In this document: positions 11,133-40,567 of the stretch, one piece after another | Layout of the letters: every line of letters begins with the position of its first letter | Position numbering within the stretch: the stretch's first letter is position 1 | Assembly: GCF_024700885.2 (NCBI RefSeq) | Contig: NZ_CP117016.1 | Reading direction: 5' to 3' (one strand) | DNA length: 64,000 nucleotides | DNA from: Escherichia coli | GTDB taxonomy: Bacteria > Pseudomonadota > Gammaproteobacteria > Enterobacterales > Enterobacteriaceae | Notes under the pieces: generated by a model | What the model saw: the letters and a program-made list of their open reading frames with translations, nothing else | Databases searched by the model: none | Told to the model about the DNA's origin: nothing | Program-made: the position numbers and the translations under genes

Positions 11133-11182
11133 ACCTGATAAATATTTGAAGAAAGGCGGCGATGACGCCGCCAAAGTGATAC

Positions 11183-22853: not shown

Positions 22854-23722
22854 TGTCCATTTTAATTGATAAAAACACCAAGGTTATCTGCCAGGGCTTT
22901 ACCGGTAGCCAGGGGACTTTCCACTCTGAACAAGCCATTGCATACGGCACTAAAATGGTTGGCGGTGTAACCCCAGGTAAAGGCGGCACCACCCACCTCG
23001 GCCTGCCGGTGTTCAACACCGTGCGTGAAGCTGTTGCTGCTACTGGCGCTACCGCTTCTGTTATCTACGTACCAGCACCGTTCTGCAAAGACTCCATTCT
23101 GGAAGCTATCGATGCAGGCATCAAACTGATTATCACCATCACTGAAGGCATCCCGACGCTGGATATGCTGACCGTGAAGGTGAAACTGGATGAAGCGGGC
23201 GTTCGCATGATCGGCCCGAACTGCCCAGGCGTTATCACTCCGGGTGAATGCAAAATCGGTATCCAGCCTGGTCACATTCACAAACCGGGTAAAGTGGGTA
23301 TCGTTTCCCGTTCCGGTACACTGACCTATGAAGCGGTGAAACAGACCACGGATTACGGTTTCGGTCAGTCGACCTGTGTTGGTATCGGCGGCGACCCGAT
23401 CCCTGGCTCTAACTTTATCGACATCCTCGAAATGTTCGAAAAAGATCCGCAGACCGAAGCGATCGTGATGATCGGTGAGATCGGCGGTAGCGCTGAAGAA
23501 GAAGCGGCTGCGTACATCAAAGAGCACGTTACCAAGCCTGTTGTGGGTTACATCGCTGGTGTGACTGCGCCGAAAGGCAAACGTATGGGCCACGCGGGTG
23601 CCATCATTGCTGGTGGGAAAGGGACTGCGGATGAGAAATTCGCTGCTCTGGAAGCCGCAGGCGTGAAAACCGTTCGCAGCCTGGCGGATATCGGTGAAGC
23701 ACTGAAAACTGTTCTGAAATAA
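22853..23722 (+). CDS. sucD: Succinyl-CoA synthetase alpha subunit, 289 aa
   Basis: Start overlaps sucC stop (ATAATG); CoA-binding [24 protein letters not shown]. Confidence 0.97.
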
Positions 23723-23822
23723 ATATCTGTAATAAGAAATAGCCCTCGCCGCTTCCCTCTACAGGAATGGCGAAGGGTTGTCGGTTTCGACATGGTTGGC
23801 CATCGTATGATGGCCTTTTTTA
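23723..23822 (+). ncRNA. sdhX: Probable SdhX (RybD) 3'-UTR-derived sRNA of the sdh-suc transcript
   Basis: About 100 nt between the sucD stop and a strong intrinsic terminator; in E. coli this 3' UTR is known to give rise to SdhX; exact 5' end not determinable from sequence. Confidence 0.5.
23798..23822 (+). terminator. Rho-independent terminator of the sdh-suc operon
   Basis: Hairpin GGCCATCGTATGATGGCC followed by TTTTTT. Confidence 0.85.
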
Positions 23823-24387
23823 TGCCTTAAATGTTAACCACGGTCGAAATCTGACCGCTGGCTTGACTGCATGACCACAGCCACTGTGGATTGCCGCAAC
23901 CGACCGCAAGCCACGAATAAGAACGACGGCGAATTTCGAATCGTTACCTGATGCACTGGCTTCCCAGCGTTTGACCGTAGCGTTAAGTAAATCAACAAAA
24001 GCGATGTTCACCGCTTATCGTCAAGTCGTGCCATTTGTCAGCCAGGATCGGGTCTTTACCCCGGATATTGCAGCATCGCAAAAATTCTTAGAGGGATATG
24101 CTATAAATCAAAAATAAAATCTTTGTTGATTGTTTATCATAATATCCACAGATATGATAAATGATATCAATTTAATAATTTTCACTTAATGTGATTCCGG
24201 ATAATTCGAAAGGCGCTGTGCTTTTCGGATTATTATTATCTGATTAAGATATTTGTCACGCCAGGCTTACTGGGTTATAAATGTCAATCATGATTCTTAT
24301 AAATTATTTATTGCTGCTTTGGTTACCATTACTTCGTAATAAGTAATGTATTTTTGATGGTTTAAACTATTTTTAAGGGACGGCATT

Positions 24388-25293
24388 ATGCGAGGAAAAA
24401 TACCTAAAACGGAGCTGCTGGTGACTTTTGAGGTCGTCGCACGTCATGAAAGTTATACCAGAGCGGCAGAGGAGTTAGCGTTAACCCAAAGTGCAGTATT
24501 CAGACAAGTGAGTGCGCTGGAGGAATTTTTACATACTCCGTTATTTTCACACTCTAAAAAACGTATTTTTCTTAATGATGCAGGGAAGTATTACCTGGGG
24601 ATAGTAAAAGAAACATTAAATAAGCTGGAACGCGATACCAATACCATTATGACCTGGCAGCCTACGGTTCAGGTTATTGAACTTGCCGTGAATCCTACGT
24701 TTAGTACCCACTGGTTAATCCCAAATTTACATGAATTCACAAAGTTACATCCCGATATTATTGTTAATATTCATTCTTTAGCTAATAACGGCGATTTTCT
24801 TAATCGGGAGTACGATGCTGTCATTATGCGCGAAAATTTTTGCGCGCCCTGGGCGGAAGTAGAATATCTCTTTGAAGAGGAGATTTTGCCGGTATGCAGC
24901 GGCAGTTTGCTTGCAATGTCCGATCAAAAACTGTCAGTGGCAGAACTGCTTACAGAGTTACCACTTCTGCATCAAAGTACCCGTATTACTGGCTGGGAAG
25001 AGTGGTTTGCCTTATCTGGCGTTAGCAGTCCGCTGGTCAACAACGGACCACGTTTCGATTTGCTTTCAATGCTGATTGCCGCCGTGCGCTCGAATCTCGG
25101 CGTGGCGCTGTTACCTCGTTTCGCTATTCAACATGATTTGGATAGTGGCGATATGGTGATCCCCTGTGATGTGCCTATTCGTACCGGTAATCGTTTTATT
25201 ATGACGTGGCAGGAAGAGAAGTCTGACTCACCGCACTTGCAGCAATTTCGTGAATGGTTGCTGGCGAAATCGGTCGTACCGCAGGAGATGTAA
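24388..25293 (+). CDS. LysR-family transcriptional regulator, 301 aa
   Basis: N-terminal HTH (ELALTQSAVFRQVSALEEFL) and LysR substrate-binding-like C-terminal domain; convergent with the distal end of the methylaspartate operon. Confidence 0.85.
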   Translation: MRGKIPKTELLVTFEVVARHESYTRAAEELALTQSAVFRQVSALEEFLHTPLFSHSKKRIFLNDAGKYYLGIVKETLNKLERDTNTIMTWQPTVQVIELAVNPTFSTHWLIPNLHEFTKLHPDIIVNIHSLANNGDFLNREYDAVIMRENFCAPWAEVEYLFEEEILPVCSGSLLAMSDQKLSVAELLTELPLLHQSTRITGWEEWFALSGVSSPLVNNGPRFDLLSMLIAAVRSNLGVALLPRFAIQHDLDSGDMVIPCDVPIRTGNRFIMTWQEEKSDSPHLQQFREWLLAKSVVPQEM

Positions 25294-25326
25294 AACCTGC
25301 GCCTGGCGGGATGCCAGACGCAGTTA

Positions 25327-25929
25327 TTACCAGTCGATACCCGGCTGGGCCTGAATGCCGTTATCAAAAGCATGTTTGACGGGGCGGATTTCGCTTACCG
25401 TATCCGCCATTTTTAATATCTGACTGTGGCAACCGCGTCCGGTGACAATGACACTTTGTTGTGCCGGGCGGTTTTGCAGAGAAGCGATCACTTCTTCGGT
25501 GTCCAGATAATGGTAAGCCAGCATATAGGTCAGCTCATCAAGCACCACTAAGTCGTAACGCTTGTCAGCCAGCATCCGTTTGCTTTCCGACCAGACCTCT
25601 TTCGCCGCGTCGATATCCGCTTGCCGGTTCTGTGTCTCCCAGGTAAAACCGGTTCCCATAATATGAAACTCAACCCCCAGCGGCTGGAGAAGGTTGTATT
25701 CACCGTTGTCCCATTGCCCCTTGATGTACTGCGCAACCCCCACCGTTTTGCCATGACCCACCGCGCGCGTCACAGTACCAAACGCGGCAGTGGATTTCCC
25801 TTTGCCGTTGCCGGTGAAAACAATCAAGATCCCTTTTTTCTCTATCGCCGCCGCGACGCGCGTATCGACCTGTTCCTTCAATTTCTGCTGGCGCTGCACA
25901 TGCCGTTCAGTTGAAATTCGCGCTTCCAT
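25327..25929 (-). CDS. ATP:cob(I)alamin adenosyltransferase (CobA/BtuR family paralog), 200 aa
   Basis: Strong resemblance to E. coli BtuR as I recall it (IIVFTGNGKGKTTAAFG P-loop, VVLDELTY, VITGRG, SELRPVKHAF motifs); last gene of the minus-strand operon. Confidence 0.85.
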   Translation of the reverse strand: MEARISTERHVQRQQKLKEQVDTRVAAAIEKKGILIVFTGNGKGKSTAAFGTVTRAVGHGKTVGVAQYIKGQWDNGEYNLLQPLGVEFHIMGTGFTWETQNRQADIDAAKEVWSESKRMLADKRYDLVVLDELTYMLAYHYLDTEEVIASLQNRPAQQSVIVTGRGCHSQILKMADTVSEIRPVKHAFDNGIQAQPGIDW

Positions 25930-25938
25930 TCATTTTCC

Positions 25939-27591
25939 TTAATGTCCCGCAGGGCAACTGGCGCAGCGGTGTTGCTGCTCAAACTGACTAAAGAAATTAT
26001 TGCCTTTATCATCTACCAGGATGAATGCGGGTAAATTTTCCACTTCCATCATCCACACCGCTTCCATACCCAGCTCCGGGTATTCCAGGCAACGCAGACT
26101 TTTGACATATTCTTGCGCCAGTAACGCAGCTGCACCGCCAATACTTCCCAGATTGAAGCCGCCATGTTTGTGACAGGCATCGGTGACCTGCTGGCTGCGG
26201 TTACCTTTCGATAACATCACCAGACTGCCGCCAGCCGCCTGGAAGGTATCGACATAACCGTCCATTCGTCCACCCGTGGTTGGACCCAGTGAACCGCAGG
26301 CCATGTTCTCCGGTGTTTTCGCCGGGCCAGCGTAATAGACAATATGATGCTTCAGGTAATCCGGCATCGATTCGCCGCTATCCAGCCGCGCTTTTATTTT
26401 GGCATGGGCGATATCGCGCGCCACTACGATGGGACCACTTAACGACACGCGGGTGCCTACCGGTAATCTGGCGAGATCCTGCATCACGTCACGCAACGGA
26501 CGGTTTAGATCCAGCTGTACATGTTGCGCGTGATTTTCTTCCCGCAGTGAGGCTGGAATATATTGCCCCGGATTGTGTTCGAGTTTTTCCAGCCAGATAC
26601 CGTGTTTGTTAATTTTTGCTTTGATATTGCGATCGGCAGAACAGGAGAGCGCCATAGCTATCGGGCAAGAGCCACCGTGACGCGGCAGACGAATGACGCG
26701 AATATCATGAGCGAAATATTTACCCCCAAATTGCGCACCAATACCAAATTGCTGACTGGCGTTGAGCAACGCTTTTTCCAACTCAATATCACGGAATGCT
26801 TGTCCCTGCTCGTTTCCGCTGGTGGGCAAATTGTCGTAATATTTCGTTGAGGCCAGCTTGGCAACTTTTAAGGTTTGATCGGCTGAAAGCCCTCCGACGA
26901 CAAAGGCGATGTGATAAGGCGGGCAGGCAGCGGTGCCCAGCGATTTCATTTTTTCGATTAAAAATGCGGTCAGTTTTTCTGGTTGCAATAGGGATTTTGT
27001 TTCCTGATAAAGCGCGGCTTTATTGGCAGAGCCCCCCCCTTTATTAATACAGAGAAAATGGTACTCATCACCAGCGACGGCGCTGATATCAATCTGCGCC
27101 GGTAGATTGGTTTGCGTATTGACTTCGGTATACATATCCAGTGGCGCATTTTGTGAAAAGCGCAGATTATTTTCCTGAAAAGTGGTGTAAATGCCTTTGC
27201 TTAAGGCTTCGGCGTCGTTACCTCCGGTCCATATCTGTTGCCCTTTACTGGCAACAATAGTTGCGGTGCCGGTATCCTGACAGTTGGGTAATACCCCTTT
27301 TGCTGAGACTTCAGCATTACGTAATAACTGCAACGCAACGTATTTATCATTACTGCTGGCCTGCGGATCGTTAAGAATGCTGGCGACCTGTTGCAAATGA
27401 GCGGAACGTAAGAAAAAAGAGGCTTCATAAAATGCCTGCCGGGCAAGCAGCGTTAATGCTTCAGGAGCGATTTTTATCACTTCTTCGCCGTCTAATTCCG
27501 TTACTGTAATATGTTGATCGCTAATTAATGTATATTCTGTACCGTCTTTATTTTGTAGATACGGTTCTTGCCAGATAAATGGTTTGGACAT
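25939..27591 (-). CDS. fumD: Class I (FumA/FumB-like) fumarate hydratase family protein, probable mesaconase, 550 aa
   Basis: FumA-sized single polypeptide of the Fe-S hydro-lyase family; location in the glutamate mutase/methylaspartase cluster corresponds to the mesaconase/fumarase FumD described for E. coli O157:H7 (from memory). Confidence 0.8.
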
Positions 27592-27698
27592 ATTTCACTT
27601 TTCACCTTAAACGTTAGTGTTACTTAATTGCCGTCTAACTTCATGATCCGGCTTATAAAAATGCGTAGTCATTGGCTTCTGATTGCTTAAGATCCCCC

Positions 27699-28979
27699 TC
27701 AGGGCAGAGCAACGTTCGATTCATTGGGTTTTAATGCTTTACCCCGACAACCCTCGCCGAAATGTTCGCCTTCCCACCGACTCACCAACGCAGCGCCCAT
27801 TGCGTTGCTCATGACGTTTGTCGCGGAACGCCCCATATCAAGGAACGGATCAACGCCCATCAGCAAGATCAGCCCCGCTTCCGGAATATTGAACTGGTTG
27901 AGCGTGGCGGCGATAACCACCATTGAGGCGCGTGGTACGCCAGCCATTCCTTTCGAGGTCAACATCAGGATCAACAGCATGGTGATTTGCTCACCGATGG
28001 ATAAATGGATATTGCAGGCCTGGGCGATGAAAACTGTGGCGAAGGAGCAGTAGGCCATTGATCCAACGAGATTAAATGAGTAGCCAATGGGTAAGACAAA
28101 GCTGGCAATTTTGGGGGAAACGCCAAATTGCTCCAGTTTTTCAAGCGTTCCCGGAAAAGCAGCTTCAGAACTGGATGTGGTAAATGCCAGCAGGGCGGGT
28201 TCCGAAAGGGCACGGGTCAGGCGTCTGATGCAGGGGCCGACATAAACGATGGCCAGACCGATAAGCAGCACCCAAAGTAACAACATGGTGAAATAAAATT
28301 CACCCATAAAGATCCCGGCGCTCACCATAACTGCCAGTCCTCGTTCAGCAATCAATGCTGAAATAGCGGCGAATACGGTCAGGGGAGCGAAGAGCATGAC
28401 GTAGCCAGTGAGCTTTAACATGGCATGTGCCAGCGAATCTAAGGCGTGAACGATGGCGCTGCCTTTCTCACCAATCGCCGTCAGGCTACAGCCGAGGAAA
28501 ATTGAGAACACCACGATTTGCAAAATTTCATTGTGCGCCATGGCATCGACAATGCTGGTGGGGAAAGCATGCGAAATAAATACTTTTAGCGTAAAGGGTT
28601 CTGACGCGACCACTCCGGTGGTTTCGGCACCGTGTGCAACAAAATTAATTCCTGTGCCTGGCATGAAGAAATTTACCGTTATCAAGCCTAAGGCAATTGA
28701 CAGCAATGAGGCGCAAATAAATAAAAAGAGTGTTTTAGAAAAAATACGACCAAGGGCTTTGGCATCGCCCATTTTAGCAATACCTACCACCAGGGTAGAG
28801 ACCACTAACGGAGCGATAATCATTTTTATCAGTCGTAAGAAAATCGTCGTGAATATCGATATTTCTTGCGCATAGAGTTTTGCTGTTTCCGGTGAAGCAG
28901 TGTTATTGATCACTACGCCGATAATCATTCCAAGTACCAGCGCCAAAAGAATCATCGTGGTTAAACTTATTTTCTTCAT
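27699..28979 (-). CDS. Dicarboxylate/amino acid:cation symporter (DAACS, GltP/DctA-like) family transporter, about 426 aa
   Basis: Multi-pass hydrophobic ORF with the family-typical N-terminus; start placed at MKKISL (ATG at 28979), preceded by GGAGGA 7 nt upstream; the ORF-track start at 29000 is a GTG. Confidence 0.8.
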   Translation of the reverse strand: MKKISLTTMILLALVLGMIIGVVINNTASPETAKLYAQEISIFTTIFLRLIKMIIAPLVVSTLVVGIAKMGDAKALGRIFSKTLFLFICASLLSIALGLITVNFFMPGTGINFVAHGAETTGVVASEPFTLKVFISHAFPTSIVDAMAHNEILQIVVFSIFLGCSLTAIGEKGSAIVHALDSLAHAMLKLTGYVMLFAPLTVFAAISALIAERGLAVMVSAGIFMGEFYFTMLLLWVLLIGLAIVYVGPCIRRLTRALSEPALLAFTTSSSEAAFPGTLEKLEQFGVSPKIASFVLPIGYSFNLVGSMAYCSFATVFIAQACNIHLSIGEQITMLLILMLTSKGMAGVPRASMVVIAATLNQFNIPEAGLILLMGVDPFLDMGRSATNVMSNAMGAALVSRWEGEHFGEGCRGKALKPNESNVALP

Positions 28980-29139
28980 TTTTTCCTCCATCAGGTGCAC
29001 GGCGATAAATCAGAATCAGGAGAAGTAGATGCCCGAATAAAAATTCAGGCATCTACCTGCTATTACAACCTTACAAATAGCTGAAGTGTTGAACTGCAAT
29101 AAGTGACGGGATGTCAGTTGGCTAAAAGTGTTCGGATTT

Positions 29140-29457
29140 TTACAAATCGAAACTCATATTTAATAAAGGTGCATGTTGCTGTGCACCATAGACATCATTG
29201 TCACCTACATTCCCGGAGATAATATCTCGTGGCATGACGATTTTTACTGCGTTAGAAGGATCAAACCAGACAATACGATGAATAAAGTCAGGTTCAACAT
29301 GATATAAGCGCGCGATCAGTTCTGGGGTTAATTGCCCTGATGATTTAACTCGCTCATAGTTTTCTTTGGTTTTAAATAAAATATCTAAAACCAGTTCGTA
29401 AGGTCCGGCATTTTTCGAACGAATGACTTGCGCCAGTGAGACAATTGACTGTTTCAT
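29140..29457 (-). CDS. DUF4387-like small protein, 105 aa
   Basis: Small soluble ORF whose start overlaps the stop of the upstream DUF1446-like gene by 4 nt; family assignment from recollection of the DUF1446/DUF4387 pair. Confidence 0.6.
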   Translation of the reverse strand: MKQSIVSLAQVIRSKNAGPYELVLDILFKTKENYERVKSSGQLTPELIARLYHVEPDFIHRIVWFDPSNAVKIVMPRDIISGNVGDNDVYGAQQHAPLLNMSFDL

Positions 29458-30824
29458 GCCTGAACTCCTTCTGGCGTCACCTGTTCAATATGGAAATCAA
29501 AACGCAGAGCGTCGTTGGCTTCAATCAGGTGATATATGGAAAATTCGTATACCGGCCCGCCCTGAATATCAGAAGGGGAGAACGGGAATGCCAGGTTGCC
29601 TGCGGTAGCGATGCGGTTTTCATAGCCGTAGTGCAGCATAGTAGAGCGCACCAGCGAGCAAACGCTATTGGCAATATCCTGGGTCGGTGCAACTACATCA
29701 AGGACAATCCCCAGCTCATGCCCGGCAGTTTGCATCGGTTCATGGTCGCCCATCACCCCGTTTTTGCCGTACAGGTGGAAATTGATGCGAATGCTGTCAT
29801 CGTCGAGCGACAGGTTACGCGAAACGCTGGTTTTGACTTCATCGATGATTTTATCGATCCCGGCGATCATGATCGGGTCGCGCGTTCCGGCGATGGTCAG
29901 ACAGCGGAAGCCCACCCGTCGCGCACCTTCCAGTTTCAGGGCATACGGCGTTTCTTCATGCTTAGAACCGCTGACGTACACTTCGCCGTCATTGACCGCT
30001 TTAAATGTGCAGCCTTTCAGGTTCAACACGCCGCCAGGTCCTGGCAGGAAGTAGGGATCGGATTTCTCATACAGTGTGTGTGCAGCTGCTGACGTTTCGG
30101 TAAATTTACGCTTCGGATTAAATGTCTTCAGCGTAAAGCCGTTGTCATCAATGATGCCCATCGCACAGTCAGAGCCTGAGCCGGGCGTTGCGGCGATTGC
30201 CGCGCATTCAAGGATTTTCCCACAATGCAGCGCCAGACCTTCATCAAAGCCTTGCATGATCGGTAGCGCAGCAAAGCAGGCCGGGTCGTAAGCGCGCCCG
30301 CCCAGCACCACTTGCGCGCCTTCTTTCAGCGCCTGCTGGAAGGGTTCGATGCCCATTTGCGCGACGATATACGTACTTTCGTCAATCGCGTCGTGGGTTA
30401 ACGGCGGGACAAAATCCAGCGCCGTGATTTTGCCGTTATCCAGCGCCTGGTGGACGATGGCTTTGTCAACGTCTGCCGGGATCAGCGCCATCGAGAACGA
30501 GAGGTGCTCTTCCCGGGCAATCTCATGAATTATTTCTCGGCACCACTCCAGGTGTGGAGCGGCACCAGAACCGCCGGCCGTTCCGATCACCACCGGTATA
30601 TTATTTTGCACGCCTGCGGTGATCATATAGCGCAGATCGCGCTTGACCCCTGCGCGATCGGTAAACGGTTTGCCCGCCCCGAGGTAGTGGGGGCCAGGAT
30701 CGGAAGAGCCAGCATCAACGGCGATCAGATCGGGCGATTCTGCCATCGCTTTGCGGAAGCTCTCCTCCGGGAATCCATACCCGAGGATTGCCGTAGGCGA
30801 TAAGACTTTAAAAGAACGAGCCAT
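29454..30824 (-). CDS. AtuA-like (DUF1446) family protein, 456 aa
   Basis: About 450-aa soluble ORF resembling acyclic-terpene-utilisation AtuA-like proteins (my recollection); 3 nt downstream of the methylaspartase gene in the same operon. Confidence 0.6.
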   Translation of the reverse strand: MARSFKVLSPTAILGYGFPEESFRKAMAESPDLIAVDAGSSDPGPHYLGAGKPFTDRAGVKRDLRYMITAGVQNNIPVVIGTAGGSGAAPHLEWCREIIHEIAREEHLSFSMALIPADVDKAIVHQALDNGKITALDFVPPLTHDAIDESTYIVAQMGIEPFQQALKEGAQVVLGGRAYDPACFAALPIMQGFDEGLALHCGKILECAAIAATPGSGSDCAMGIIDDNGFTLKTFNPKRKFTETSAAAHTLYEKSDPYFLPGPGGVLNLKGCTFKAVNDGEVYVSGSKHEETPYALKLEGARRVGFRCLTIAGTRDPIMIAGIDKIIDEVKTSVSRNLSLDDDSIRINFHLYGKNGVMGDHEPMQTAGHELGIVLDVVAPTQDIANSVCSLVRSTMLHYGYENRIATAGNLAFPFSPSDIQGGPVYEFSIYHLIEANDALRFDFHIEQVTPEGVQA

Positions 30825-30827
30825 TTG

Positions 30828-32069
30828 TTAATCCTTAGCCTGCAACAGCGCGATAGTACGATTCATTTCGTTGAAGACGATATCGAGGCCTTCGTCAAAG
30901 CCCATCCCTGGCTTTACCAGCATACGCATAGGGCGAGCGGCAAGGGCGATGTGGACACAGGTGCGGGCACTGACATCAGTTTCATTGCAGGTGCCGCCCT
31001 GGTACGCTTCCATGCTGTGGCTATTGCAGTAAAGAACCGCATCGACGATGTTGTGAATACTGCCCAGATCCGGGGTTTTGATTTGCACCATGTGACAACT
31101 GGCGGCATCAGTAAAATCAACAATATCCTGGTAGGTGTTACACCATTCATCGGCCACAATTTTCACGCCGGAACCGAGGCGCGTCAGCTCTTTGGTAATC
31201 GCGGTCAGCAGGCGAATTTGATCGGGCTTGTTACCGGCATCGACCGGACCTTCAATGTAGAGCGGCAGGCCTTGCGCTTCTTTTTCCAGGCTGGCGATGT
31301 ATTGCGCACAGCGAAGCGGATCCATATCGAAGATCAGACCGATAGTGCCGTATACATCGATGTGCAGGGTAGGGTGGTAGCGTGCGCTGGTGCGCTTGCT
31401 CAGAATACGATCCGACAGCCAGCGGACATATTCGCGCAGTTTTTCACCTTTAAAGCCCAGTTTCTCTTCGACGTTATTAATCAGTGCATGGGGCAGCACG
31501 TCGATGCCCTTAAGGATCATCTTATCGACGGCGATATATCGATCGTCGCCGCTCTGACCAAATAATGGAATGGATTCCGCCACGCGTGGCAACTGCCATT
31601 CATCACAGACCACTTCAGTTTTCAGACGGCCGGTTGCCAGCGCGGTAGCATCAAGCAGCGCCTGTGATAATCCGTAGCGCACGGCGGTATGCAGCAAGTT
31701 GCCGTCAATACGCAATTTGTCGAAGAAACGGGCATTCGGCAGGAAAGCATCTACATCGCGGCCTACCAGTAATGGCTTGATATGGTCGTTGAGGAACGGA
31801 ATAAAGTGCTCTGCGAGGAACAGTGGATCGCGACCACCTGCCCCGGAATACTGTACGGCAGCACAGTCACCTACGGCGACCGCGCCGTTTTCCAGAATCA
31901 ACTGTACCGATACGCACTCCCCGGCCTGACGTACGGCGTTAAACCCCTGTGTTACTGGCTCCCCGGTATAAAAAAAGCCGTCGTGACCCGCTCCGTTTTT
32001 TATCGCCTGCTGGTCATCGAAATAGAATGAGGAGTAGCCAGCGGTGAACAGGGCCTGTTTTATTTTCAT
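30828..32069 (-). CDS. 3-methylaspartate ammonia-lyase (methylaspartase, enolase superfamily), 413 aa
   Basis: N-terminus MKIKQALFTAGYSSFYFDDQQAIKNGAGHDGFFYTGEPVT and length are typical of methylaspartase; start overlaps the glmE stop. Confidence 0.9.
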   Translation of the reverse strand: MKIKQALFTAGYSSFYFDDQQAIKNGAGHDGFFYTGEPVTQGFNAVRQAGECVSVQLILENGAVAVGDCAAVQYSGAGGRDPLFLAEHFIPFLNDHIKPLLVGRDVDAFLPNARFFDKLRIDGNLLHTAVRYGLSQALLDATALATGRLKTEVVCDEWQLPRVAESIPLFGQSGDDRYIAVDKMILKGIDVLPHALINNVEEKLGFKGEKLREYVRWLSDRILSKRTSARYHPTLHIDVYGTIGLIFDMDPLRCAQYIASLEKEAQGLPLYIEGPVDAGNKPDQIRLLTAITKELTRLGSGVKIVADEWCNTYQDIVDFTDAASCHMVQIKTPDLGSIHNIVDAVLYCNSHSMEAYQGGTCNETDVSARTCVHIALAARPMRMLVKPGMGFDEGLDIVFNEMNRTIALLQAKD

Positions 32070-33514
32070 TATGGTCTTCCTATTAATTTACTGTGGGATA
32101 CAGCATTGATGTCATCTACAACCATCTGGAATGTCGGTTGGCGTCCTTCAAAGCGTGCGCGTTCCGCAACGTAATCGTGGTGGAGGTCGAGAATATCTTT
32201 TGGCAATGGAACGGCTCCGGCTTCCAGTACGCGTATCGCGCCGGTGTTGTCACGGACCGGAAGAATTTTGCCCGCGTTGCAGGCGGCTGGCGCAAACGGC
32301 ACATCCAGTACGCCCGCTTCAAATGCCAGCACCGTACCGCGCGCAATATCACCATTACCCAGTTCGAACACTTTATTCAGTACCGCGCGAACCTCGCTCT
32401 TAATCAGTTCAATTTCCAGTTCAACCGCAGGGCAAGGCGGGAATTTCTGCTCGTTGACCATGTTGAGCATCTGGCGGGAGGCTTTCAGCCCCTGAATGTT
32501 GGCAGCGGCAGTCGGGATGCCCCAGGCTTCGTGCGGACTTTTGGTGATGACTTTGGTGGCACCAGACATCCCCGCGACGGCTGCACCCCAGGAGATAATG
32601 GCGAACGCTTTCGATTCGTCTTCCGGAAAGCCGCCCATCCACTGGTGAAACACGGTACTTAATTCATAGTCGGTATAGCCATAGCTCTGAAAGTATTCGT
32701 GTGCAAGTTCACGCAGAGACTGGATCGCCGCGACATCCTGCGTCAGGCTGCCGACCTGTCCATAACCAACGGTGATAGATTTCACACCCTGTTCCAGCGC
32801 CAGTAATCCTTCGATTATCGCGATAGAGTGCGAGATAAACGGCGGGATCAGCGTACCCGTTAGTGGGCCAAACGGTTCGCGGTTGATGCGGATCCCGTGT
32901 TCTTCATACATCCCCATTAAACGATCGCAGTACTGCCAGTCGCGGATCGATTTTTCCAGCGTTACGCGCTTGGCATACGGAATATTGTAGGAAATGCCGC
33001 CGCCTTCATAACTGGTAAAGCCGCTGGCCATCGAGATTTCAGCCAGCAGACGCGCATCTGGCGTGCCGTGGCGGATCTGTAGCGGTTTTTGCAAAGTTTC
33101 GGTGAGGCGACGGCAAGCTGCGACGCCGTGGTTAACTACCGGTAAACCGTTCAGTTTAGAGGTTCCGGCTTCGATGGATTTTTTAATCCCTACAGCCGCT
33201 TCTTCGTACCGATTCAGACGGGTATATGCATCGATGGTGCTCGGCAGCAGATCGCACTCTTCTTGTGGTGTTTTCAGTAGTTCGATGTGTTCGTCCATCA
33301 GCGCCACGCCTGCGCGCGGTTGGCTAAGAGTTTTACCTTCCTTGTCTGCTTTCAGCAGGGCAAGAGAGAAGCGTTTATGCTCAGGAATGGTTTGTTGGTA
33401 TTTAACGCCATCTTCAAAGTTTTCAACATCCTTGCCGGTTTCCCAGGTTTTCAGTACCTGTTGCCGCTCGGTCATGAATTCGTCATGGGTTAATTTCTTA
33501 TTTCGAAGTTCCAT
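32069..33514 (-). CDS. glmE: Glutamate mutase epsilon (catalytic, E) subunit, 481 aa
   Basis: Length and sequence consistent with methylaspartate mutase E chain; sits between glmL and the methylaspartase gene as in clostridial glmS-glmL-glmE clusters. Confidence 0.88.
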   Translation of the reverse strand: MELRNKKLTHDEFMTERQQVLKTWETGKDVENFEDGVKYQQTIPEHKRFSLALLKADKEGKTLSQPRAGVALMDEHIELLKTPQEECDLLPSTIDAYTRLNRYEEAAVGIKKSIEAGTSKLNGLPVVNHGVAACRRLTETLQKPLQIRHGTPDARLLAEISMASGFTSYEGGGISYNIPYAKRVTLEKSIRDWQYCDRLMGMYEEHGIRINREPFGPLTGTLIPPFISHSIAIIEGLLALEQGVKSITVGYGQVGSLTQDVAAIQSLRELAHEYFQSYGYTDYELSTVFHQWMGGFPEDESKAFAIISWGAAVAGMSGATKVITKSPHEAWGIPTAAANIQGLKASRQMLNMVNEQKFPPCPAVELEIELIKSEVRAVLNKVFELGNGDIARGTVLAFEAGVLDVPFAPAACNAGKILPVRDNTGAIRVLEAGAVPLPKDILDLHHDYVAERARFEGRQPTFQMVVDDINAVSHSKLIGRP

Positions 33515-33749
33515 TGATTGCAGCCTTAATTGTTATAGGGTTAAGCATTGAATACTGGTGCGCGCGGCGGCCAGTGGATCGACTCTGGCGACGTTTGCCA
33601 GCAGTGGTAATAGCCCCCGGGAATCGCGGTAATATTCAAATTCGGTCGGTAAGAGAATGCGTTTACCGTCGTCGTTTAACTCGCGGTATTTCAACCAGTG
33701 ATGCATATCGAACTGACTGGCACGCGAGAGCCATCCGCCGGAACCAACG

Positions 33750-33757
33750 ACTTTACG
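33750..33757. repeat. Target-site duplication (left copy) ACTTTACG
   Basis: 8-bp direct repeat immediately flanking the IS26 left inverted repeat. Confidence 0.85.
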
Positions 33758-34577
33758 GGCACTGTTGCAAATAGTCGGTGGTGATAAACTTATCATCCCC
33801 TTTTGCTGATGGAGCTGCACATGAACCCATTCAAAGGCCGGCATTTTCAGCGTGACATCATTCTGTGGGCCGTACGCTGGTACTGCAAATACGGCATCAG
33901 TTACCGTGAGCTGCAGGAGATGCTGGCTGAACGCGGAGTGAATGTCGATCACTCCACGATTTACCGCTGGGTTCAGCGTTATGCGCCTGAAATGGAAAAA
34001 CGGCTGCGCTGGTACTGGCGTAACCCTTCCGATCTTTGCCCGTGGCACATGGATGAAACCTACGTGAAGGTCAATGGCCGCTGGGCGTATCTGTACCGGG
34101 CCGTCGACAGCCGGGGCCGCACTGTCGATTTTTATCTCTCCTCCCGTCGTAACAGCAAAGCTGCATACCGGTTTCTGGGTAAAATCCTCAACAACGTGAA
34201 GAAGTGGCAGATCCCGCGATTCATCAACACGGATAAAGCGCCCGCCTATGGTCGCGCGCTTGCTCTGCTCAAACGCGAAGGCCGGTGCCCGTCTGACGTT
34301 GAACACCGACAGATTAAGTACCGGAACAACGTGATTGAATGCGATCATGGCAAACTGAAACGGATAATCGGCGCCACGCTGGGATTTAAATCCATGAAGA
34401 CGGCTTACGCCACCATCAAAGGTATTGAGGTGATGCGTGCACTACGCAAAGGCCAGGCCTCAGCATTTTATTATGGTGATCCCCTGGGCGAAATGCGCCT
34501 GGTAAGCAGAGTTTTTGAAATGTAAGGCCTTTGAATAAGACAAAAGGCTGCCTCATCGCTAACTTTGCAACAGTGCC
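33758..34577 (+). mobile_element. IS26 (IS6 family), complete 820-bp copy
   Basis: 14-bp terminal inverted repeats GGCACTGTTGCAAA (33758-33771) and TTTGCAACAGTGCC (34564-34577); internal transposase matches IS26 Tnp as I recall; flanked by 8-bp direct repeats. Confidence 0.93.
33821..34525 (+). CDS. tnpA: IS26 transposase Tnp26 (DDE), 234 aa
   Basis: MNPFKGRHFQRDIILWAVRWYCKYGISYRELQEMLAERGVNVDHSTIYRWVQRYAPEMEK is the canonical IS26 transposase N-terminus (from memory); start placed at the ATG 18 nt inside the ORF-track start. Confidence 0.93.
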   Translation: MNPFKGRHFQRDIILWAVRWYCKYGISYRELQEMLAERGVNVDHSTIYRWVQRYAPEMEKRLRWYWRNPSDLCPWHMDETYVKVNGRWAYLYRAVDSRGRTVDFYLSSRRNSKAAYRFLGKILNNVKKWQIPRFINTDKAPAYGRALALLKREGRCPSDVEHRQIKYRNNVIECDHGKLKRIIGATLGFKSMKTAYATIKGIEVMRALRKGQASAFYYGDPLGEMRLVSRVFEM

Positions 34578-34585
34578 ACTTTACG
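34578..34585. repeat. Target-site duplication (right copy) ACTTTACG
   Basis: 8-bp direct repeat immediately flanking the IS26 right inverted repeat. Confidence 0.85.
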
Positions 34586-35748
34586 CACGGTTGTCAGGTC
34601 ACGTCCCATCTGTAAATCGACATTGCCGACGCAGGTGCAGACCTCTTTTTTGGTGCCCGCATGTCTTTCGGTGGCATAACCCACACACAGTCCGGCCAGG
34701 ACGGTATCGAAATATTTTTCTTCTGCATTCGCGGGTAAGTAGTCGGGATGAGCGACTAGATGGCGGAGGTAATGATAAAAAGCGTCCAGCTGTGCGGGTT
34801 GCTGAGCAAAATTCACATTGACTAACTCTTTCGCACTTTCACCAACCACCATTGCCGAGACGCGCATTCCCAGATCGCCTTCCACCGTCCGTTTCACGAA
34901 GGGTTCCGGTACGCCGTGTAAAACGGTGTCGGGCGAGAGCGTGTTGGCACAGGCGGAATAGACATCGGTGGTTGCGCCACCCATGTCGATCAGCATGAAC
35001 TCTTTCCAGCTGTGATCGACGTTACTGATTGCCTTAACCAGTTCAAAGACCGTCCATGGTGTCGGCATTGGTTCTTCGCCTGTTTTATCAACAATGACAT
35101 CCAACCCTTTCCCTTTAACGATGCGTTTAAGGAATATGTCGCAGATAGCCTGGCGTGCAGCTAAAGGGTTCGGATGGTCAAGATCGGGCAGAACGTTGTC
35201 GACGATGGTCAGGTCTTTATGCCCGAGGATCTCCTGCACCTCGTCCTGAATATCCCGGTTTCCGGCATAAATAATGGCGCAGTCGAGTTTGGATTCTGCC
35301 AACACACGGGCGTTATTCAGTCCGTAGCTTTCTTCTCCGCCATCGGTGCCGCCGGTGAACAAGAGAATATCGGGCTGCGTTTCTTCCAGTGCCTGGATAT
35401 CACGGCGGTTCAGCTTGTAGGCGTAATATTGCGCAATTTTAGCACCCGCAGAGTGAGCGGTTACTTTCGCGGTTTCCAGGGTGATAGAAGGCACCAATCC
35501 CATTGCGGCAACCGCCAGCCCACCTTTGGCAGAGGAGGAATACTTCAATGCAACCTCACCACTGTTTAACAGGGGGAGGGCATTATCTACGTTTAACACC
35601 TGGTCCAGGCTGGAGAAAAACCCCTTCGCCAGATGATGGGTGGTGGTTGGGGTCAGAACGTGGTTAACCAACGTTAACGCGTCCCCCTCCCGGGTGAAGA
35701 GGGCTGCTTTGGTCCACGTCGAACCAATATCGACAGAGACGATTTGCA

Positions 35749-36198
35749 TCAGATTGCCTCTTCAAGAATGCGAGTATCAACGTCATGACGTTGGTTGATA
35801 TCGTGGGCCATCAGCTGACAAACATCTTCTAAGTCATGACTTGGGGAAAAGACGCGATCAAATCCCATCTCTTTGAACTTGGTTTCCACGTCAGCGAAGT
35901 CATGTTTTCCGACCACCAGGTTACCGCCCACATAGAGCAGGATGTTACCCAGCCCACGCTCGATGCAGCGTTCGCGCATGCCCAGACAATCGATATCGCC
36001 ATGCCCATAGATAGAGGAGACGACAATCGCGTCAGCACCAGTTTCAATGGCAGCATCAATATATTCGTCCTGGCTGACCATTACGCCCAGATTAATAACT
36101 CTGAAGTCATGGTTGCTAAAAACGCGGTCCAGAACTTTATTGCCTACTGCATGGCAGTCCGCGCCAATAACGCCAATCACAAGTGTTGCTTTCTTCAT
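35749..36198 (-). CDS. glmS: Glutamate mutase sigma (B12-binding, S) subunit, about 149 aa
   Basis: [24 protein letters not shown] contains the DxHxxG cobalamin-binding signature; start at ATG 36198 preceded by AGGA; stop overlaps the glmL start (ATGA). Confidence 0.88.
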
Positions 36199-36745
36199 GG
36201 GTAATCCTTTGTAAGACAGAGAGTAAAATAAGTTACACACGTCGTATTTATGGCCGCTCATAACGGCACAGGTTTAATATCACAGGAGTGTCTTTATCTG
36301 ACCGTAATGTTGCAATTGATCTATTTTCAAAATGTCTTTCGGGAAATGATTGTTTAAAGTGTGTTTTCAAATTCTCATTTTAATTCAGTGTGTTATGTCA
36401 ACTAATGTCATGAATGTTAAATTTTTAAAATTAACTTGATTTGATGTATTGAGATAATTGTGATCAACTTCTAATTTGCATTTTTGTGACGTGGCTTTAG
36501 CCATGAGTAAATACATTTCATAAAAGTTAAGTCGAATTTCACTGCAATTCATCTCTGCTTAATGTAAAAATAATGTTGAAAATAACAAATAATTAATGAT
36601 TCATGCGAATTATGACCTTTGTTAGCTCTTTTGATTTTTCGTAAAAAAGAAAAGTACATGAAGGTGCTACCAGTACGAGTAACGTTAATCAAAAGTTTTA
36701 TTACGTCTGGCAATAACGCAGGCCATTTTTCGCGACAGGAGGGAT

Positions 36746-37168
36746 TTAATCAGTATAATCCTCATACAATAGGTCAGGATTTACTGAACCGTTAACGGGG
36801 ATTTGGTGTTGAAATTTAGAAATGGCGGAGTCAATTAATGAAGACAATATCGGAAAAATGACAGTGTCAGAATTAATTTCAATTAATCCTTCTCGTTGTT
36901 GACCAAAAAAGATATTTATCTTGATTTCATTTGTACTACGGCAATCAATATGCAGTAATTTTTGATCGCTGAGATTTTCTGTTTCATAAATGTTTTTGGC
37001 GATAGTCGGATGTATTGATGCCAGACATCTGCTCAGATAAGCCAGATCCTTTAGGGAACACCCCGCTGAGTAGAGGATGTCAGAGAATTTTTGTGTGTCA
37101 ACTGTTGTCTCTGAAGCGTATGTTGCATTGACAGGAAGGGTGTTGAAAGAGATTTGAGATGGGATCAT
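36746..37168 (-). CDS. Hypothetical protein, 140 aa, no recognisable family
   Basis: ORF in a markedly AT-rich block; co-directional with and 80 bp downstream of the 314-aa orphan ORF; coding status unverified. Confidence 0.45.
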   Translation of the reverse strand: MIPSQISFNTLPVNATYASETTVDTQKFSDILYSAGCSLKDLAYLSRCLASIHPTIAKNIYETENLSDQKLLHIDCRSTNEIKINIFFGQQREGLIEINSDTVIFPILSSLIDSAISKFQHQIPVNGSVNPDLLYEDYTD

Positions 37169-37248
37169 TATTTAAATCTTTCCGTGAGTAATAAAAATTA
37201 ATCCCCGGGCATTGTTTAGCAATATTTGCCACAGGGAATATATAAAAA

Positions 37249-38193
37249 TTAAAGTATTTGATTGGCATCGGTTAACTGATCAATAACCAGTGCCAGATTG
37301 GTAAACATTTTGAAAAAGCGATACTGGCTCGGAATATCTCTTTCAAAGACGAAACATTCAATGTCATTGTTTGAAAAATAAAGGACTAGTGTTGCTGATT
37401 CGTCAGGAAAAATATGGAAATATATCTGGTTACCAGAAGGAGGATAGTCCAGATGAAGGGTATCTTTGCCCGTCACATACCTGTTGTGGTCGTGGATGCT
37501 GCGCTCACACTTCATCAGAGGTGTCATGATACTCATGTATTCATCTGATGTTAATATATTAAAATCACCATCCATTTTAAAGAAACGATAAAGTAACAGT
37601 ACATCCTCTTGCGTAACCGGTTCGTTTGTTTTTAGAGGGAAATAAGTGGGAACCAGAAGATGAGGTTCTAATCTATTTTGTTGAGCGCTATAACTAAATT
37701 TGAACATAAATTCCGGATCGCTCATTAATTGAGCGACATAATTATGCCTGGCTTCAAAAATTTTAACTTTTATCAGGTTAAATAAGTCTGTTTCGTTATC
37801 CTGTATTAAAAGACATTGGCCATAGCAGCCAGGCTTTTTTTCATTATAAGCAGAAACGGTTATTCTGTCAGGAGTGTCAACGTTATATCCAAAAGCCAGA
37901 TAGTGACCTTCCTCATCGAGATTTGTTTCCAGGTTATTTAAATTCATCACATGAAGTGTTTGCAATGCTGATTCAATGAGCTGTTGACTCTCTGAGGTAA
38001 ATGTTTCGCGCTGCGTTGTATAAAGTGTATCGATTCCAACGACTATCCGATGTGGGTCAAGGATGGCGGCAATCATCTTTATTACCTGCACAGTCATGGG
38101 TGATGTCATTGATTCTTTATCTGTTTTTAGAGGATCATTAGATGGCCAACCTGAGAAGCGATTGACAGCAGAACTGATATTATCAGGACTCAT
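37249..38193 (-). CDS. Hypothetical protein, 314 aa, no recognisable family
   Basis: Longest ORF in an AT-rich region with no competing frame; no signal peptide or transmembrane segment evident; no motif I can assign. Confidence 0.55.
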   Translation of the reverse strand: MSPDNISSAVNRFSGWPSNDPLKTDKESMTSPMTVQVIKMIAAILDPHRIVVGIDTLYTTQRETFTSESQQLIESALQTLHVMNLNNLETNLDEEGHYLAFGYNVDTPDRITVSAYNEKKPGCYGQCLLIQDNETDLFNLIKVKIFEARHNYVAQLMSDPEFMFKFSYSAQQNRLEPHLLVPTYFPLKTNEPVTQEDVLLLYRFFKMDGDFNILTSDEYMSIMTPLMKCERSIHDHNRYVTGKDTLHLDYPPSGNQIYFHIFPDESATLVLYFSNNDIECFVFERDIPSQYRFFKMFTNLALVIDQLTDANQIL

Positions 38194-38647
38194 AGCAGCA
38201 ACCTCATTGTAATCAAGCGAGGCGCTGAGCGTACTCGGCTATAGAAAAACTAACTTGCAAAAATCGCTCATTTTTCATTTATCAGGCGAAAGTGGTCTCT
38301 GTTCACTCAGAAACAATCACTCCCGCTAAGTCATACCTGTATCATCGATACATTTAAGTGATTATTACTAATGAAACAATAACATAACGGGCTTACGGCC
38401 GGTGCTCATAAACGCAACAATCAATTAACTTTGATAAAAATATGTTATGTAAAATAGCAACAAATTGGCTAATCTAATCAATTGGTATTATAAAAAGTGG
38501 ATAAGGCGGTTCTGTTAAATAAAACACTGGTTTTTTATCTATACCTTTTCATTGTAATAATTGTGTTGCATAAATATTTCACAATAAATTAACAATAAAA
38601 TTACCAATGATCTATGGTTTATACATAATTAACATATTTGGTTGGTT

Positions 38648-38661
38648 TTGATATAAATCAA
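38648..38661. promoter_or_regulatory. FNR-type site TTGATATAAATCAA in the cydA upstream region
   Basis: Perfect TTGAT-N4-ATCAA palindrome about 340 bp upstream of cydA; cydAB is known to be FNR/ArcA regulated. Confidence 0.55.
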
Positions 38662-38998
38662 TTTTTAATTCTTGAAAAAAATCTGCAAAACACGATAAAT
38701 TGTCGTAGATCAAATTGGTGAGATCGTGACAATTTCGCTATAAATTGATCACTGTCGAAAAATGCAAATTTGCTCAATAAAAACCTGTTTATTGTAAGGA
38801 TTTTGCGGCGTAATATAATTACGGGATCAATTTGGTTTATTCATTAACATATTTGTAACTTTTTTATCATTGTCTTTTCCTCTTTTGATGAAATGGCAAC
38901 GATAGAGGCGAGCAAATAATTTTGTATTGGGGCATGCGTGTGACCCTTTCTAACGGGGTTCACTCTCGGAGTCTTCATGCGATGAGCAAGGAGTCATG

Positions 38999-40567
38999 AT
39001 GTTAGATATAGTCGAACTGTCGCGCTTACAGTTTGCCTTGACCGCGATGTACCACTTCCTTTTTGTGCCACTGACGCTCGGTATGGCGTTCCTGCTGGCC
39101 ATTATGGAAACGGTCTACGTCCTTTCCGGCAAACAGATTTATAAAGATATGACCAAGTTCTGGGGCAAGTTGTTTGGTATCAACTTCGCTCTGGGTGTGG
39201 CTACCGGTCTGACCATGGAGTTCCAGTTCGGGACTAACTGGTCTTACTATTCCCACTATGTAGGGGATATCTTCGGTGCGCCGCTGGCAATCGAAGGTCT
39301 AATGGCCTTCTTCCTCGAATCCACCTTTGTAGGTCTGTTCTTCTTCGGTTGGGATCGTCTGGGTAAAGTTCAGCATATGTGTGTCACCTGGCTGGTGGCG
39401 CTCGGTTCAAACCTGTCCGCACTGTGGATTCTGGTTGCGAACGGCTGGATGCAAAACCCAATCGCGTCCGATTTCAACTTTGAAACTATGCGTATGGAGA
39501 TGGTGAGCTTCTCCGAGCTGGTGCTTAACCCGGTTGCTCAGGTGAAATTCGTTCACACTGTAGCGTCTGGTTATGTGACTGGCGCGATGTTCATCCTCGG
39601 TATCAGCGCATGGTATATGCTGAAAGGTCGTGACTTCGCCTTCGCTAAACGCTCCTTTGCTATCGCTGCCAGCTTCGGTATGGCTGCCGTTCTGTCTGTT
39701 ATTGTTCTGGGTGATGAATCTGGTTACGAAATGGGCGACGTGCAGAAAACCAAACTGGCTGCTATTGAAGCCGAGTGGGAAACGCAACCTGCGCCTGCTG
39801 CCTTTACTCTGTTCGGCATTCCTGATCAGGAAGAGGAGACGAACAAATTTGCGATCCAGATCCCTTACGCGCTGGGCATCATTGCAACGCGTTCCGTGGA
39901 TACTCCAGTTATCGGCCTGAAAGAACTGATGGTGCAGCATGAAGAACGCATTCGTAACGGGATGAAGGCGTACTCTCTGCTCGAGCAACTGCGTTCTGGT
40001 TCTACCGACCAGGCGGTTCGTGACCAGTTCAATAGCATGAAGAAAGACCTCGGTTACGGTCTGCTGCTGAAACGCTATACGCCAAACGTGGCTGATGCGA
40101 CTGAAGCGCAGATTCAACAGGCAACCAAAGACTCCATTCCGCGTGTAGCGCCGCTGTACTTCGCGTTCCGTATCATGGTGGCGTGTGGCTTCCTGCTGCT
40201 GGCAATCATCGCGCTCTCTTTCTGGAGTGTCATCCGCAACCGCATTGGCGAGAAAAAATGGCTGCTGCGCGCCGCGCTGTACGGTATTCCGCTGCCGTGG
40301 ATTGCTGTAGAAGCGGGCTGGTTTGTGGCTGAATATGGCCGCCAACCGTGGGCTATCGGTGAAGTGCTGCCGACAGCTGTGGCGAACTCGTCACTGACCG
40401 CAGGTGATCTCATCTTCTCAATGGTGCTGATTTGCGGCCTGTATACCCTGTTCCTGGTGGCAGAATTGTTCTTAATGTTTAAATTTGCACGCCTCGGCCC
40501 AAGCAGCCTGAAAACCGGTCGCTATCACTTTGAGCAGTCTTCCACGACTACTCAGCCGGCACGCTAA
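38999..40567 (+). CDS. cydA: Cytochrome bd-I ubiquinol oxidase subunit I, 522 aa
   Basis: [41 protein letters not shown] matches CydA; start at the second ATG. Confidence 0.96.

Follow-up and report, generated by a model that had tools for sequence, protein, structure and literature searches.

The classical enzyme for the last step of glutamate breakdown through methylaspartate is the clostridial citramalate lyase (EC 4.1.3.22), in which CitDEF together with CitC, CitX, and CitG converts (S)-citramalate to pyruvate and acetate. Catalysis by CitDEF proceeds via an acetyl-thioester attached to an acyl-carrier subunit, with phosphoribosyl-dephospho-CoA as the prosthetic group, and three helper genes are required. 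[quoted passage not shown] Neither of these clusters contains an AtuA or DUF4387 gene.

In another study, Kronen and Berg (2015) described a cluster in E. coli O157:H7 with GlmS/L/E, Mal, DUF1446, a GltP-like transporter, FumD, CobA/CobO, and a LysR regulator, and found it in 26.5% of strains (PMC4682846). They characterized FumD as a mesaconase, left DUF1446 without a role, did not mention DUF4387, and stated that the "fate of (S)-citramalate is still unclear." Neither expression of the cluster nor growth on glutamate was achieved in O157:H7, and methylaspartase (MAL) was undetectable in the extracts. Citrate-grown extracts contained citrate lyase (0.48 U/mg) and no citramalate lyase, and growth on acetate or propionate likewise gave extracts without citramalate lyase, at a detection limit of 1 mU/mg (PMC4682846). 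Because the cells did not express the cluster, as the undetectable MAL indicates, these extracts are uninformative on the DUF1446/DUF4387 pair that the cluster encodes.

A different type of enzyme is represented by PDB entries 9ERQ and 9EVF, released in October 2025, whose chains A and B were named by the depositors "Citramalate lyase, subunit A (cmlA)/B (cmlB)." Their titles are "Citramalate lyase - AMPPNP - citramalate complex" (9ERQ) and "Citramalate lyase - ADP - pyruvate complex" (9EVF). The source organism is given as Raoultella planticola (bioRxiv 10.64898/2026.01.16.699985), and the crystallized chain A is identical to the product of a gene of Klebsiella michiganensis DSM 25444. The same 2026 preprint employed cmlAB in vivo as a CoA-independent citramalate lyase: an acetyl-CoA auxotroph needed the cml plasmid to grow on mesaconate, and the route was confirmed by isotope labelling. 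Growth supported by Cml appeared only after laboratory evolution and was absent on racemic citramalate (bioRxiv 10.64898/2026.01.16.699985).

The family has a further described member in AtuA of acyclic terpene utilization, a protein of 615 aa encoded in the atu context (PMC4847356). AtuA likewise combines Pfam PF07287 with PF14330, and it is proposed to split acetate off a tertiary 3-hydroxy acid. AtuA differs from CmlAB in being one fused polypeptide of about 600 aa, in acting on a CoA ester, and in belonging to an operon with geranyl-CoA carboxylase, whereas CmlAB has DUF4387 as a separate polypeptide, a free dicarboxylate as substrate, and a glm-mal context.

Organization of the E. coli island

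The window, a stretch of 64,000 nucleotides (64 kb), carries the E. coli chromosome from sucABCD through the island to cydAB. Positions 25327-36198 are bounded exactly by the cobO stop at one end and the glmS start codon at the other, and every gene of the operon lies on the minus strand. Genes were assigned by Pfam and NCBIfam profile searches covering 13 ORFs in and around the island. The features are as follows.

24388..25293, + strand: LysR-family regulator (GcvA-like), Pfam HTH_1 + LysR_substrate, convergent with the operon
25297..25323, - strand: terminator-like hairpin by consensus match only, 11-pair stem with 8 G-C pairs, then a T-rich tail
25327..25929, - strand: cobO/btuR-like ATP:cob(I)alamin adenosyltransferase, PF02572 E=5e-64, NF004637 296 bits (over cut-off)
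25939..27591, - strand: fumD-type class I fumarase/mesaconase, Fumerase + Fumerase_C, NF011921 1280 bits
27699..28979, - strand: DAACS (SDF) cation symporter, PF00375 E=3e-102, start codon per RefSeq
29140..29457, - strand: cmlB, DUF4387 small subunit, PF14330 E=3e-39, match to 9erq_B
29454..30824, - strand: cmlA, AtuA/DUF1446-like large subunit, PF07287, match to 9erq_A/9evf_A
30828..32069, - strand: mal, 3-methylaspartate ammonia-lyase, MAAL_N + MAAL_C, TIGR01502 544 bits
32069..33514, - strand: glmE, glutamate mutase E (catalytic) subunit, PF06368 E=3e-213
33533..33757, - strand: glmL 3' remnant, about the last 72 codons, MutL profile positions 378-446
33758..34577, + strand: IS26, 820 bp, perfect 14-bp inverted repeats, tnp26 at 33821-34525
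34578..35749, - strand: truncated glmL 5' part, glutamate mutase accessory/reactivating protein, codons 1-390 of 462, MutL profile positions 1-383, E=4e-125
35749..36198, - strand: glmS, glutamate mutase S (B12-binding) subunit, first gene of the operon, PF02310

These profiles confirmed the genes for glutamate mutase, methylaspartase, and mesaconase, as the initial annotation had assigned them. The mal product matches the Citrobacter MAL structure 1KKO at E=5e-270, and RefSeq gives the name glmS to a gene identical to the one found here. For fumD, the NF011921 score lies over the cut-off of 1060, while the FumA model stays under its own cut-off (NCBIfam). The symporter resembles both DctA and GltP, with scores under both cut-offs, and is presumed to take up glutamate or a dicarboxylate. 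GcvA is the top NCBIfam match of the LysR regulator, at a score under the GcvA cut-off, and a LysR gene beside cobO is kept in most enterobacterial loci. The hairpin directly 3' of the cobO stop is the probable end of the operon, judging from its consensus features. An Rfam scan of positions 23000-39500 for a cobalamin riboswitch or other RNA element gave no match at E<=0.1.

This is the same chromosomal island, with the same gene set, as the FumD cluster of O157:H7, and the window also carries a strain-specific IS26 in glmL. The island is present in 1,117 of 5,426 complete E. coli genomes.

Absence of a classical citramalate lyase

The initial annotation's view that the island lacks a CitDEF-type or HpcH-type lyase and a CoA-transferase is borne out, for the island and for the 64-kb window alike. 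No island ORF matches PF03328 (CitE/HpcH), PF04223 (CitF), PF06857 (CitD), or the CoA-transferase families, and neither a CoA-transferase nor a PF03328 lyase, as a citramalyl-CoA route would use, is among the Pfam and NCBIfam matches of the 13 ORFs. When all six frames of the window were searched by tblastn with CitE/F/X/G of E. coli and CitD/E/F/C of C. tetani, the best match was E=0.14 (25 bits), while the same queries recovered the clostridial genes at E<=1e-67. Because genes and IS26 occupy 97% of positions 25327-36198 and the biggest gap is 160 bp, there is no space for a hidden gene.

Identity of cmlA and cmlB

Immediately after mal, within a cluster of glmS, glmL, glmE, and mal that has no citDEF, lie two adjoining genes that encode a PF07287 protein of 456 aa and a PF14330 protein of 105 aa, the start of cmlB overlapping the stop of cmlA by 4 nt (ATGA). 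The larger product aligns with 9erq_A/9evf_A over its full length without gaps (E=1e-292; 92.3% identity over 456 aa), as does the smaller one with 9erq_B (E=5e-57; 84.6% identity over 104 aa), and the predicted fold of CmlA is that of 9ERQ chain A. The pair thus shares with the crystallized enzyme its two-gene architecture, its subunit sizes, its predicted fold, and its place directly after mal. It differs in being the E. coli orthologue, known from sequence, and in having IS26 upstream in its operon.

A fused AtuA-DUF4387 protein in an atuABCDEFGH context is not what the window holds, and CmlA matches the AtuA Pfam model weakly (72 bits). Compared to CitDEF, the CmlAB proteins are unrelated and have none of the CitDEF domains; according to the PDB titles, an adenine nucleotide is bound instead.

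From this similarity we infer that E. coli CmlAB shares the activity of its crystallized orthologue. That activity is taken from the PDB names, the ligand complexes, and the in vivo use in the 2026 preprint. A search of the accessible literature returned only the 2015 FumD paper and this preprint using the enzyme, and the activity rests on the PDB names and titles and one preprint because no primary paper with CmlAB kinetics was found. A lyase annotation of the pair is absent from Pfam, NCBIfam, RefSeq, and UniRef, where the current labels are AtuA-family, DUF4387, "methylaspartate ammonia-lyase," and "acyl-CoA synthetase." A bona fide citramalate lyase in an island ORF, which the initial annotation had named as the finding that would refute it, emerges from a search of solved structures; Pfam and NCBIfam profiles still return the AtuA-family and DUF4387 labels.

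Neighborhood of cmlAB across genomes

A comparison of 80 genome loci with a CmlA at least 60% identical spanned Enterobacterales, Betaproteobacteria, Riflebacteria, Spirochaetes, Lentisphaerae, Myxococcota, and others. The mal gene is directly upstream of cmlA in 78 of these 80 loci and cmlB directly downstream in 76, and none has citE/F/X/G within about 10 kb. Conserved neighbors that would point to acetyl phosphate were also looked for: neither ackA nor pta was found, and the conserved genes encode a fumarase, a GntR regulator, and an uncharacterized P-loop protein. The clostridial contexts that served as controls came from a MAL homologue search seeded with C. tetanomorphum MAL, an earlier MAL search having given close relatives only.

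Proposed pathway and alternative explanations

Collectively, the gene identities, the near-identity to crystallized CmlAB, the linkage of cmlAB to mal across phyla, and the absence of citEF make it very probable that the island encodes a genetically complete enterobacterial methylaspartate (mesaconate) pathway of glutamate breakdown with CmlAB as its last enzyme. Both glutamate mutase subunits (S and E), methylaspartase, mesaconase, and a match to the citramalate-cleaving enzyme are all encoded in the island, with the accessory glmL disrupted. Glutamate would enter through the DAACS symporter and be converted to 3-methylaspartate by GlmS/GlmE, for which CobO would supply adenosylcobalamin and which GlmL would maintain. 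MAL would then remove ammonia to give mesaconate, FumD would hydrate mesaconate to (S)-citramalate, and the two-subunit CmlA/CmlB enzyme would cleave (S)-citramalate to pyruvate and acetate without CoA or an acyl-carrier protein. CmlAB would thereby take the place of the six-gene clostridial CitDEF/CXG system. The missing final step was the published question of 2015, and CmlAB has already answered it.

The initial annotation had the pathway apparently stop at citramalate and offered three ways out: a chromosomal enzyme elsewhere, the DUF1446/DUF4387 pair, or a different end such as production or detoxification of mesaconate or citramalate. The full-length match to chains crystallized with citramalate and with pyruvate favors the pair and speaks against both a stop at citramalate and a different end. 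A pathway that ends at citramalate or mesaconate, with secretion of the product, for example as a host-directed metabolite, and an unrelated role for the pair is very improbable. It would fit the lack of citramalate-cleaving activity in the O157:H7 extracts of 2015, whose authors explicitly considered secretion (PMC4682846), and the fact that no sequence database calls the pair a lyase. However, the cluster was not expressed in the cells that yielded those extracts, and the pair follows mal in nearly all loci across phyla, with citEF in none. Supply of the last step in trans by the chromosomal citCDEFXG citrate lyase, isocitrate lyase, or methylisocitrate lyase is hardly credible. Citrate lyase is homologous to the clostridial citramalate lyase, and strain MLI114 does have citE-citF-citX-citG-citT about 97 kb from the island, but published O157:H7 extracts with citrate lyase, isocitrate lyase, or the methylcitrate pathway lacked citramalate lyase activity (PMC4682846), and the operon itself encodes a dedicated lyase.

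A different question is how CmlAB cleaves its substrate. It is conceivable, though unlikely, that the enzyme consumes ATP and phosphorylates the C4 carboxylate of citramalate, so that end products and energy balance differ from those of the textbook pathway. On this tentative proposal, CmlAB would perform a third, thioester-free cleavage of 3-hydroxy acids, in which a kinase-like N-terminal domain uses ATP to form a C4 acyl phosphate and a retro-aldol reaction releases acetyl phosphate (or acetate and Pi). By an equally speculative extension, the whole AtuA/DUF1446-DUF4387 family, including its fungal and plant members, may consist of nucleotide-dependent lyases that free acetate from tertiary 3-hydroxy acids. 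If CmlAB used ATP in this way, the ATP balance of enterobacterial glutamate breakdown would be altered, which might explain the failure of these bacteria to grow on glutamate alone.

With CmlAB as a compact, CoA-independent citramalate lyase, the cluster provides the genes for converting gut glutamate to pyruvate, acetate, and ammonia in the presence of B12. About one in five E. coli carry it, among them most O157:H7, as do many opportunistic enterobacteria. Since databases keep the old labels for cmlA and cmlB, automated metabolic reconstructions will keep reporting a broken pathway.

IS26 insertion in glmL

In the strain analyzed here, IS26 splits glmL after codon 390 and is flanked by an 8-bp target duplication, ACTTTACG, at 33750-33757 and 34578-34585. 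Strain MLI114, which matches the window at 100% identity except for IS26, has an intact glmL with which the remnants are colinear, and the insertion junction occurs in none of the 5,426 complete E. coli genomes searched. This insertion had gone unmentioned in the initial annotation. An outward promoter reading from IS26 into glmE was considered and rejected, as TTGGTT, which lies 17 nt beyond the outward TTGCAA of the inverted repeat, makes a poor -10 box. Downstream of IS26, glmE, mal, cmlA, cmlB, the symporter gene, fumD, and cobO are tightly packed in one direction of transcription, so that the insertion has probably silenced the operon or left the pathway poorly expressed in the IS26-bearing strain.

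Gene content of the glutamate island

The window is part of the E. coli chromosome, with the gene order dtpD/ybgI, gltA, sdhCDAB, sucABCD, the island, cydAB, tol-pal, gal and mod. It is colinear with, and about 100% identical to, the chromosome of strain MLI114 (NZ_CP117013.1), the sole difference being an extra 820 bases at 33758-34577. The interval 25327-36198 is read on the minus strand, and its ends coincide exactly with the stop codon of cobO and the start codon of glmS. Every substantial ORF was scanned with Pfam and NCBIfam models, and the following assignments were obtained.

Genes of the island and its flank
35749-36198, minus strand: glmS, B12-binding subunit of glutamate mutase
34578-35749 and 33533-33757, minus strand: glmL, MutL-type accessory protein, in two pieces
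32069-33514, minus strand: glmE, E subunit of glutamate mutase
30828-32069, minus strand: mal, methylaspartate ammonia-lyase (MAL)
29454-30824, minus strand: AtuA/DUF1446 ORF (cmlA), PF07287 protein
29140-29457, minus strand: DUF4387 ORF (cmlB), PF14330 protein
27699-28979, minus strand: symporter gene, DAACS family
25939-27591, minus strand: fumD, class I fumarase matching NF011921 and not the FumA/FumB models
25327-25929, minus strand: cobO, corrinoid adenosyltransferase
24388-25293, convergent with the island genes: LysR gene

Eight genes are co-directional, with intergenic gaps of -4 to 160 bp. A strong terminator-like hairpin with 8 G-C pairs among its 11 (25297-25323, minus strand) lies within the 33-bp spacer that separates cobO from the convergent LysR gene, and it probably terminates both the cobO-side and the LysR transcripts. 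Between glmS and cydA are ORFs of 140 and 314 amino acids (36746-37168 and 37249-38193, minus strand), which have no Pfam or NCBIfam match and are hypothetical proteins in RefSeq. The G+C content of the stretch that holds them is only about 36%, and they may have been acquired horizontally as a separate piece bordering the island.

The citramalate-cleaving step

No match to the CitE/HpcH (PF03328), CitF, CitD or CoA-transferase families was found by Pfam and NCBIfam in any scanned ORF. The whole window was also searched in six frames by tblastn with E. coli CitE, CitF, CitX and CitG and C. tetani CitD, CitE, CitF and CitC; the best hit reached only E=0.14, and the same Cit queries recovered the clostridial genes at E<=1e-67. 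Of the interval 25327-36198, 97% is occupied by genes and the insertion sequence and no gap exceeds 160 bp, which leaves no space for a hidden gene. Thus, the observation in the initial annotation that the island encodes no CitDEF- or HpcH-type lyase or CoA-transferase is correct.

The AtuA/DUF1446 and DUF4387 pair was identified by a sequence search of solved structures. The 456-aa ORF aligns end to end and without gaps with 9erq_A and 9evf_A (E=1e-292, 92.3% identical), both named [quoted passage not shown], and the 105-aa ORF matches 9erq_B, "Citramalate lyase, subunit B (cmlB)" (E=5e-57, 84.6% identical). The structures are entitled "Citramalate lyase - AMPPNP - citramalate complex" (9ERQ, released 2025-10-22) and "Citramalate lyase - ADP - pyruvate complex" (9EVF, released 2025-10-08), and their chain A is identical to the product of a Klebsiella michiganensis DSM 25444 gene. 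A literature search found no primary paper on CmlAB. In a preprint, an acetyl-CoA auxotroph that had undergone laboratory evolution needed the cml plasmid to grow on mesaconate, and labelling confirmed carbon flow into acetyl-CoA (bioRxiv 10.64898/2026.01.16.699985). The chemistry of CmlAB fits that of the AtuA/DUF1446 family, and we infer that the E. coli orthologue behaves as the crystallised enzyme does.

The initial annotation had the pathway stop at citramalate and offered three ways out, namely an enzyme encoded elsewhere, the DUF1446/DUF4387 pair, or a different end for the cluster. This interpretation is partly supported: given the near-identity of the pair to CmlA and CmlB, the headline does not hold, and only the second way out is upheld. 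An ordinary citE-citF-citX-citG-citT locus is present in near-identical MLI114, about 97 kb from the island. The idea of an enzyme elsewhere was tested by Kronen and Berg (2015), who reported the same cluster from E. coli O157:H7 and demonstrated that FumD is a mesaconase. Their citrate-grown extracts had citrate lyase (0.48 U/mg) and no citramalate lyase, and citramalate lyase was likewise absent from extracts that contained isocitrate lyase or the enzymes of the methylcitrate pathway (PMC4682846). The cluster was not inducible in their study and MAL activity was undetectable (PMC4682846); therefore, these assays are uninformative on proteins encoded by the cluster itself. They also remarked on the unexplained DUF1446 gene following mal (PMC4682846). 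The matter is already known, the question dating from 2015 and the answer from the structures released in 2025.

Sequence databases lag behind this assignment, which has an implication for the large and poorly understood AtuA/DUF1446 family. Public names are inconsistent and partly wrong: CmlA appears as "acyclic terpene utilization AtuA family protein", "DUF1446" or "3-methylaspartate ammonia-lyase", and CmlB as "DUF4387", "hypothetical protein" or "Acyl-CoA synthetase". Among the sources of names for these two proteins, only the PDB uses citramalate lyase.

Proposed pathway

Given the observed gene identities, near-identity to CmlAB and linkage pattern, and with the lyase activity taken from the work of others, the most likely route is as follows: the symporter would import glutamate, adenosylcobalamin-dependent GlmSE would rearrange it, MAL would deaminate the product, FumD would hydrate the product of MAL, and CmlAB would cleave the resulting compound to pyruvate and acetate. 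CobO would supply the coenzyme and GlmL would keep the mutase working. The preprint names only acetate as product and found up-regulation of Acs beneficial (bioRxiv 10.64898/2026.01.16.699985). A sequence profile search detected no kinase, and neither ackA nor pta is a conserved neighbour of cmlAB.

cmlAB loci across phyla

One genome per species was scanned with a CmlA alignment, and the best 80 loci (60-99% identity) were kept, spanning Enterobacterales, Betaproteobacteria, Riflebacteria, Spirochaetes, Lentisphaerae, Myxococcota, Holophagaceae and others. Among them, the order glmS-glmL-glmE-mal-cmlA-cmlB is conserved, with mal immediately upstream of cmlA in 78 and cmlB immediately downstream in 76 (the contig ends there in two of the four exceptions), and none has citE, citF, citX or citG within about 10 kb. 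Unlike these loci, the clusters of the clostridial controls C. tetani and C. ljungdahlii lack both the AtuA and the DUF4387 gene and read glmS-mutL-glmE-mal-mesA-mesB followed by citD-citE-citF-citC, with additional citX and citG in C. tetani. Two unrelated lyase systems filling one slot of the same pathway is what non-orthologous replacement would be expected to produce. The regulator also differs: the E. coli island has one of LysR type, clostridia and Riflebacteria one of GntR type.

Just two loci among the 80, one from an Accumulibacter MAG (L055, cmlA-cmlB 67% identical) and one from a Holophagaceae MAG (L083, 62% identical), have no mal or glm gene within about 10 kb of cmlA-cmlB; their cmlAB may serve the use of citramalate or mesaconate from another source. 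Genes in the order glmE-mal-cmlA-cmlB-symporter-fumD-cobO, with 98-100% protein identity to E. coli, are found on a 7.3-kb contig labelled "MAG: Collinsella sp." (L005); though binned as this actinobacterium, the contig almost certainly comes from E. coli and was mis-binned. Directly after cmlB, a protein of roughly 317 aa that bears a Walker-A motif (GAEGSGKST) is encoded at 10609-11562 (plus strand) in locus L057 and at the corresponding place in 19 of the 34 non-enterobacterial cmlAB loci (Riflebacteria, Spirochaetes, others). It belongs to no Pfam family and is only weakly similar to ABC-type ATPases, and the E. coli island lacks it; it could assist either the lyase or the mutase as an accessory factor.

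An IS26 insertion in glmL

The extra 820 bases (33758-34577) are a single complete IS26. Its 14-bp inverted repeats (GGCACTGTTGCAAA) are perfect, its tnp26 is intact and lies on the plus strand, and it is flanked at 33750-33757 and 34578-34585 by the two copies of an 8-bp target duplication (ACTTTACG). The element cuts glmL after codon 390 of 462, and a search of 5,426 complete E. coli genomes found this IS26-glmL junction in no other strain. No convincing outward promoter was seen in the IS; since the genes are co-directional with gaps of -4 to 160 bp and end at the hairpin, the insertion probably has a polar effect on glmE, mal, cmlAB, the symporter gene, fumD and cobO. The pathway may therefore be off in this isolate, for a reason other than the one first proposed.
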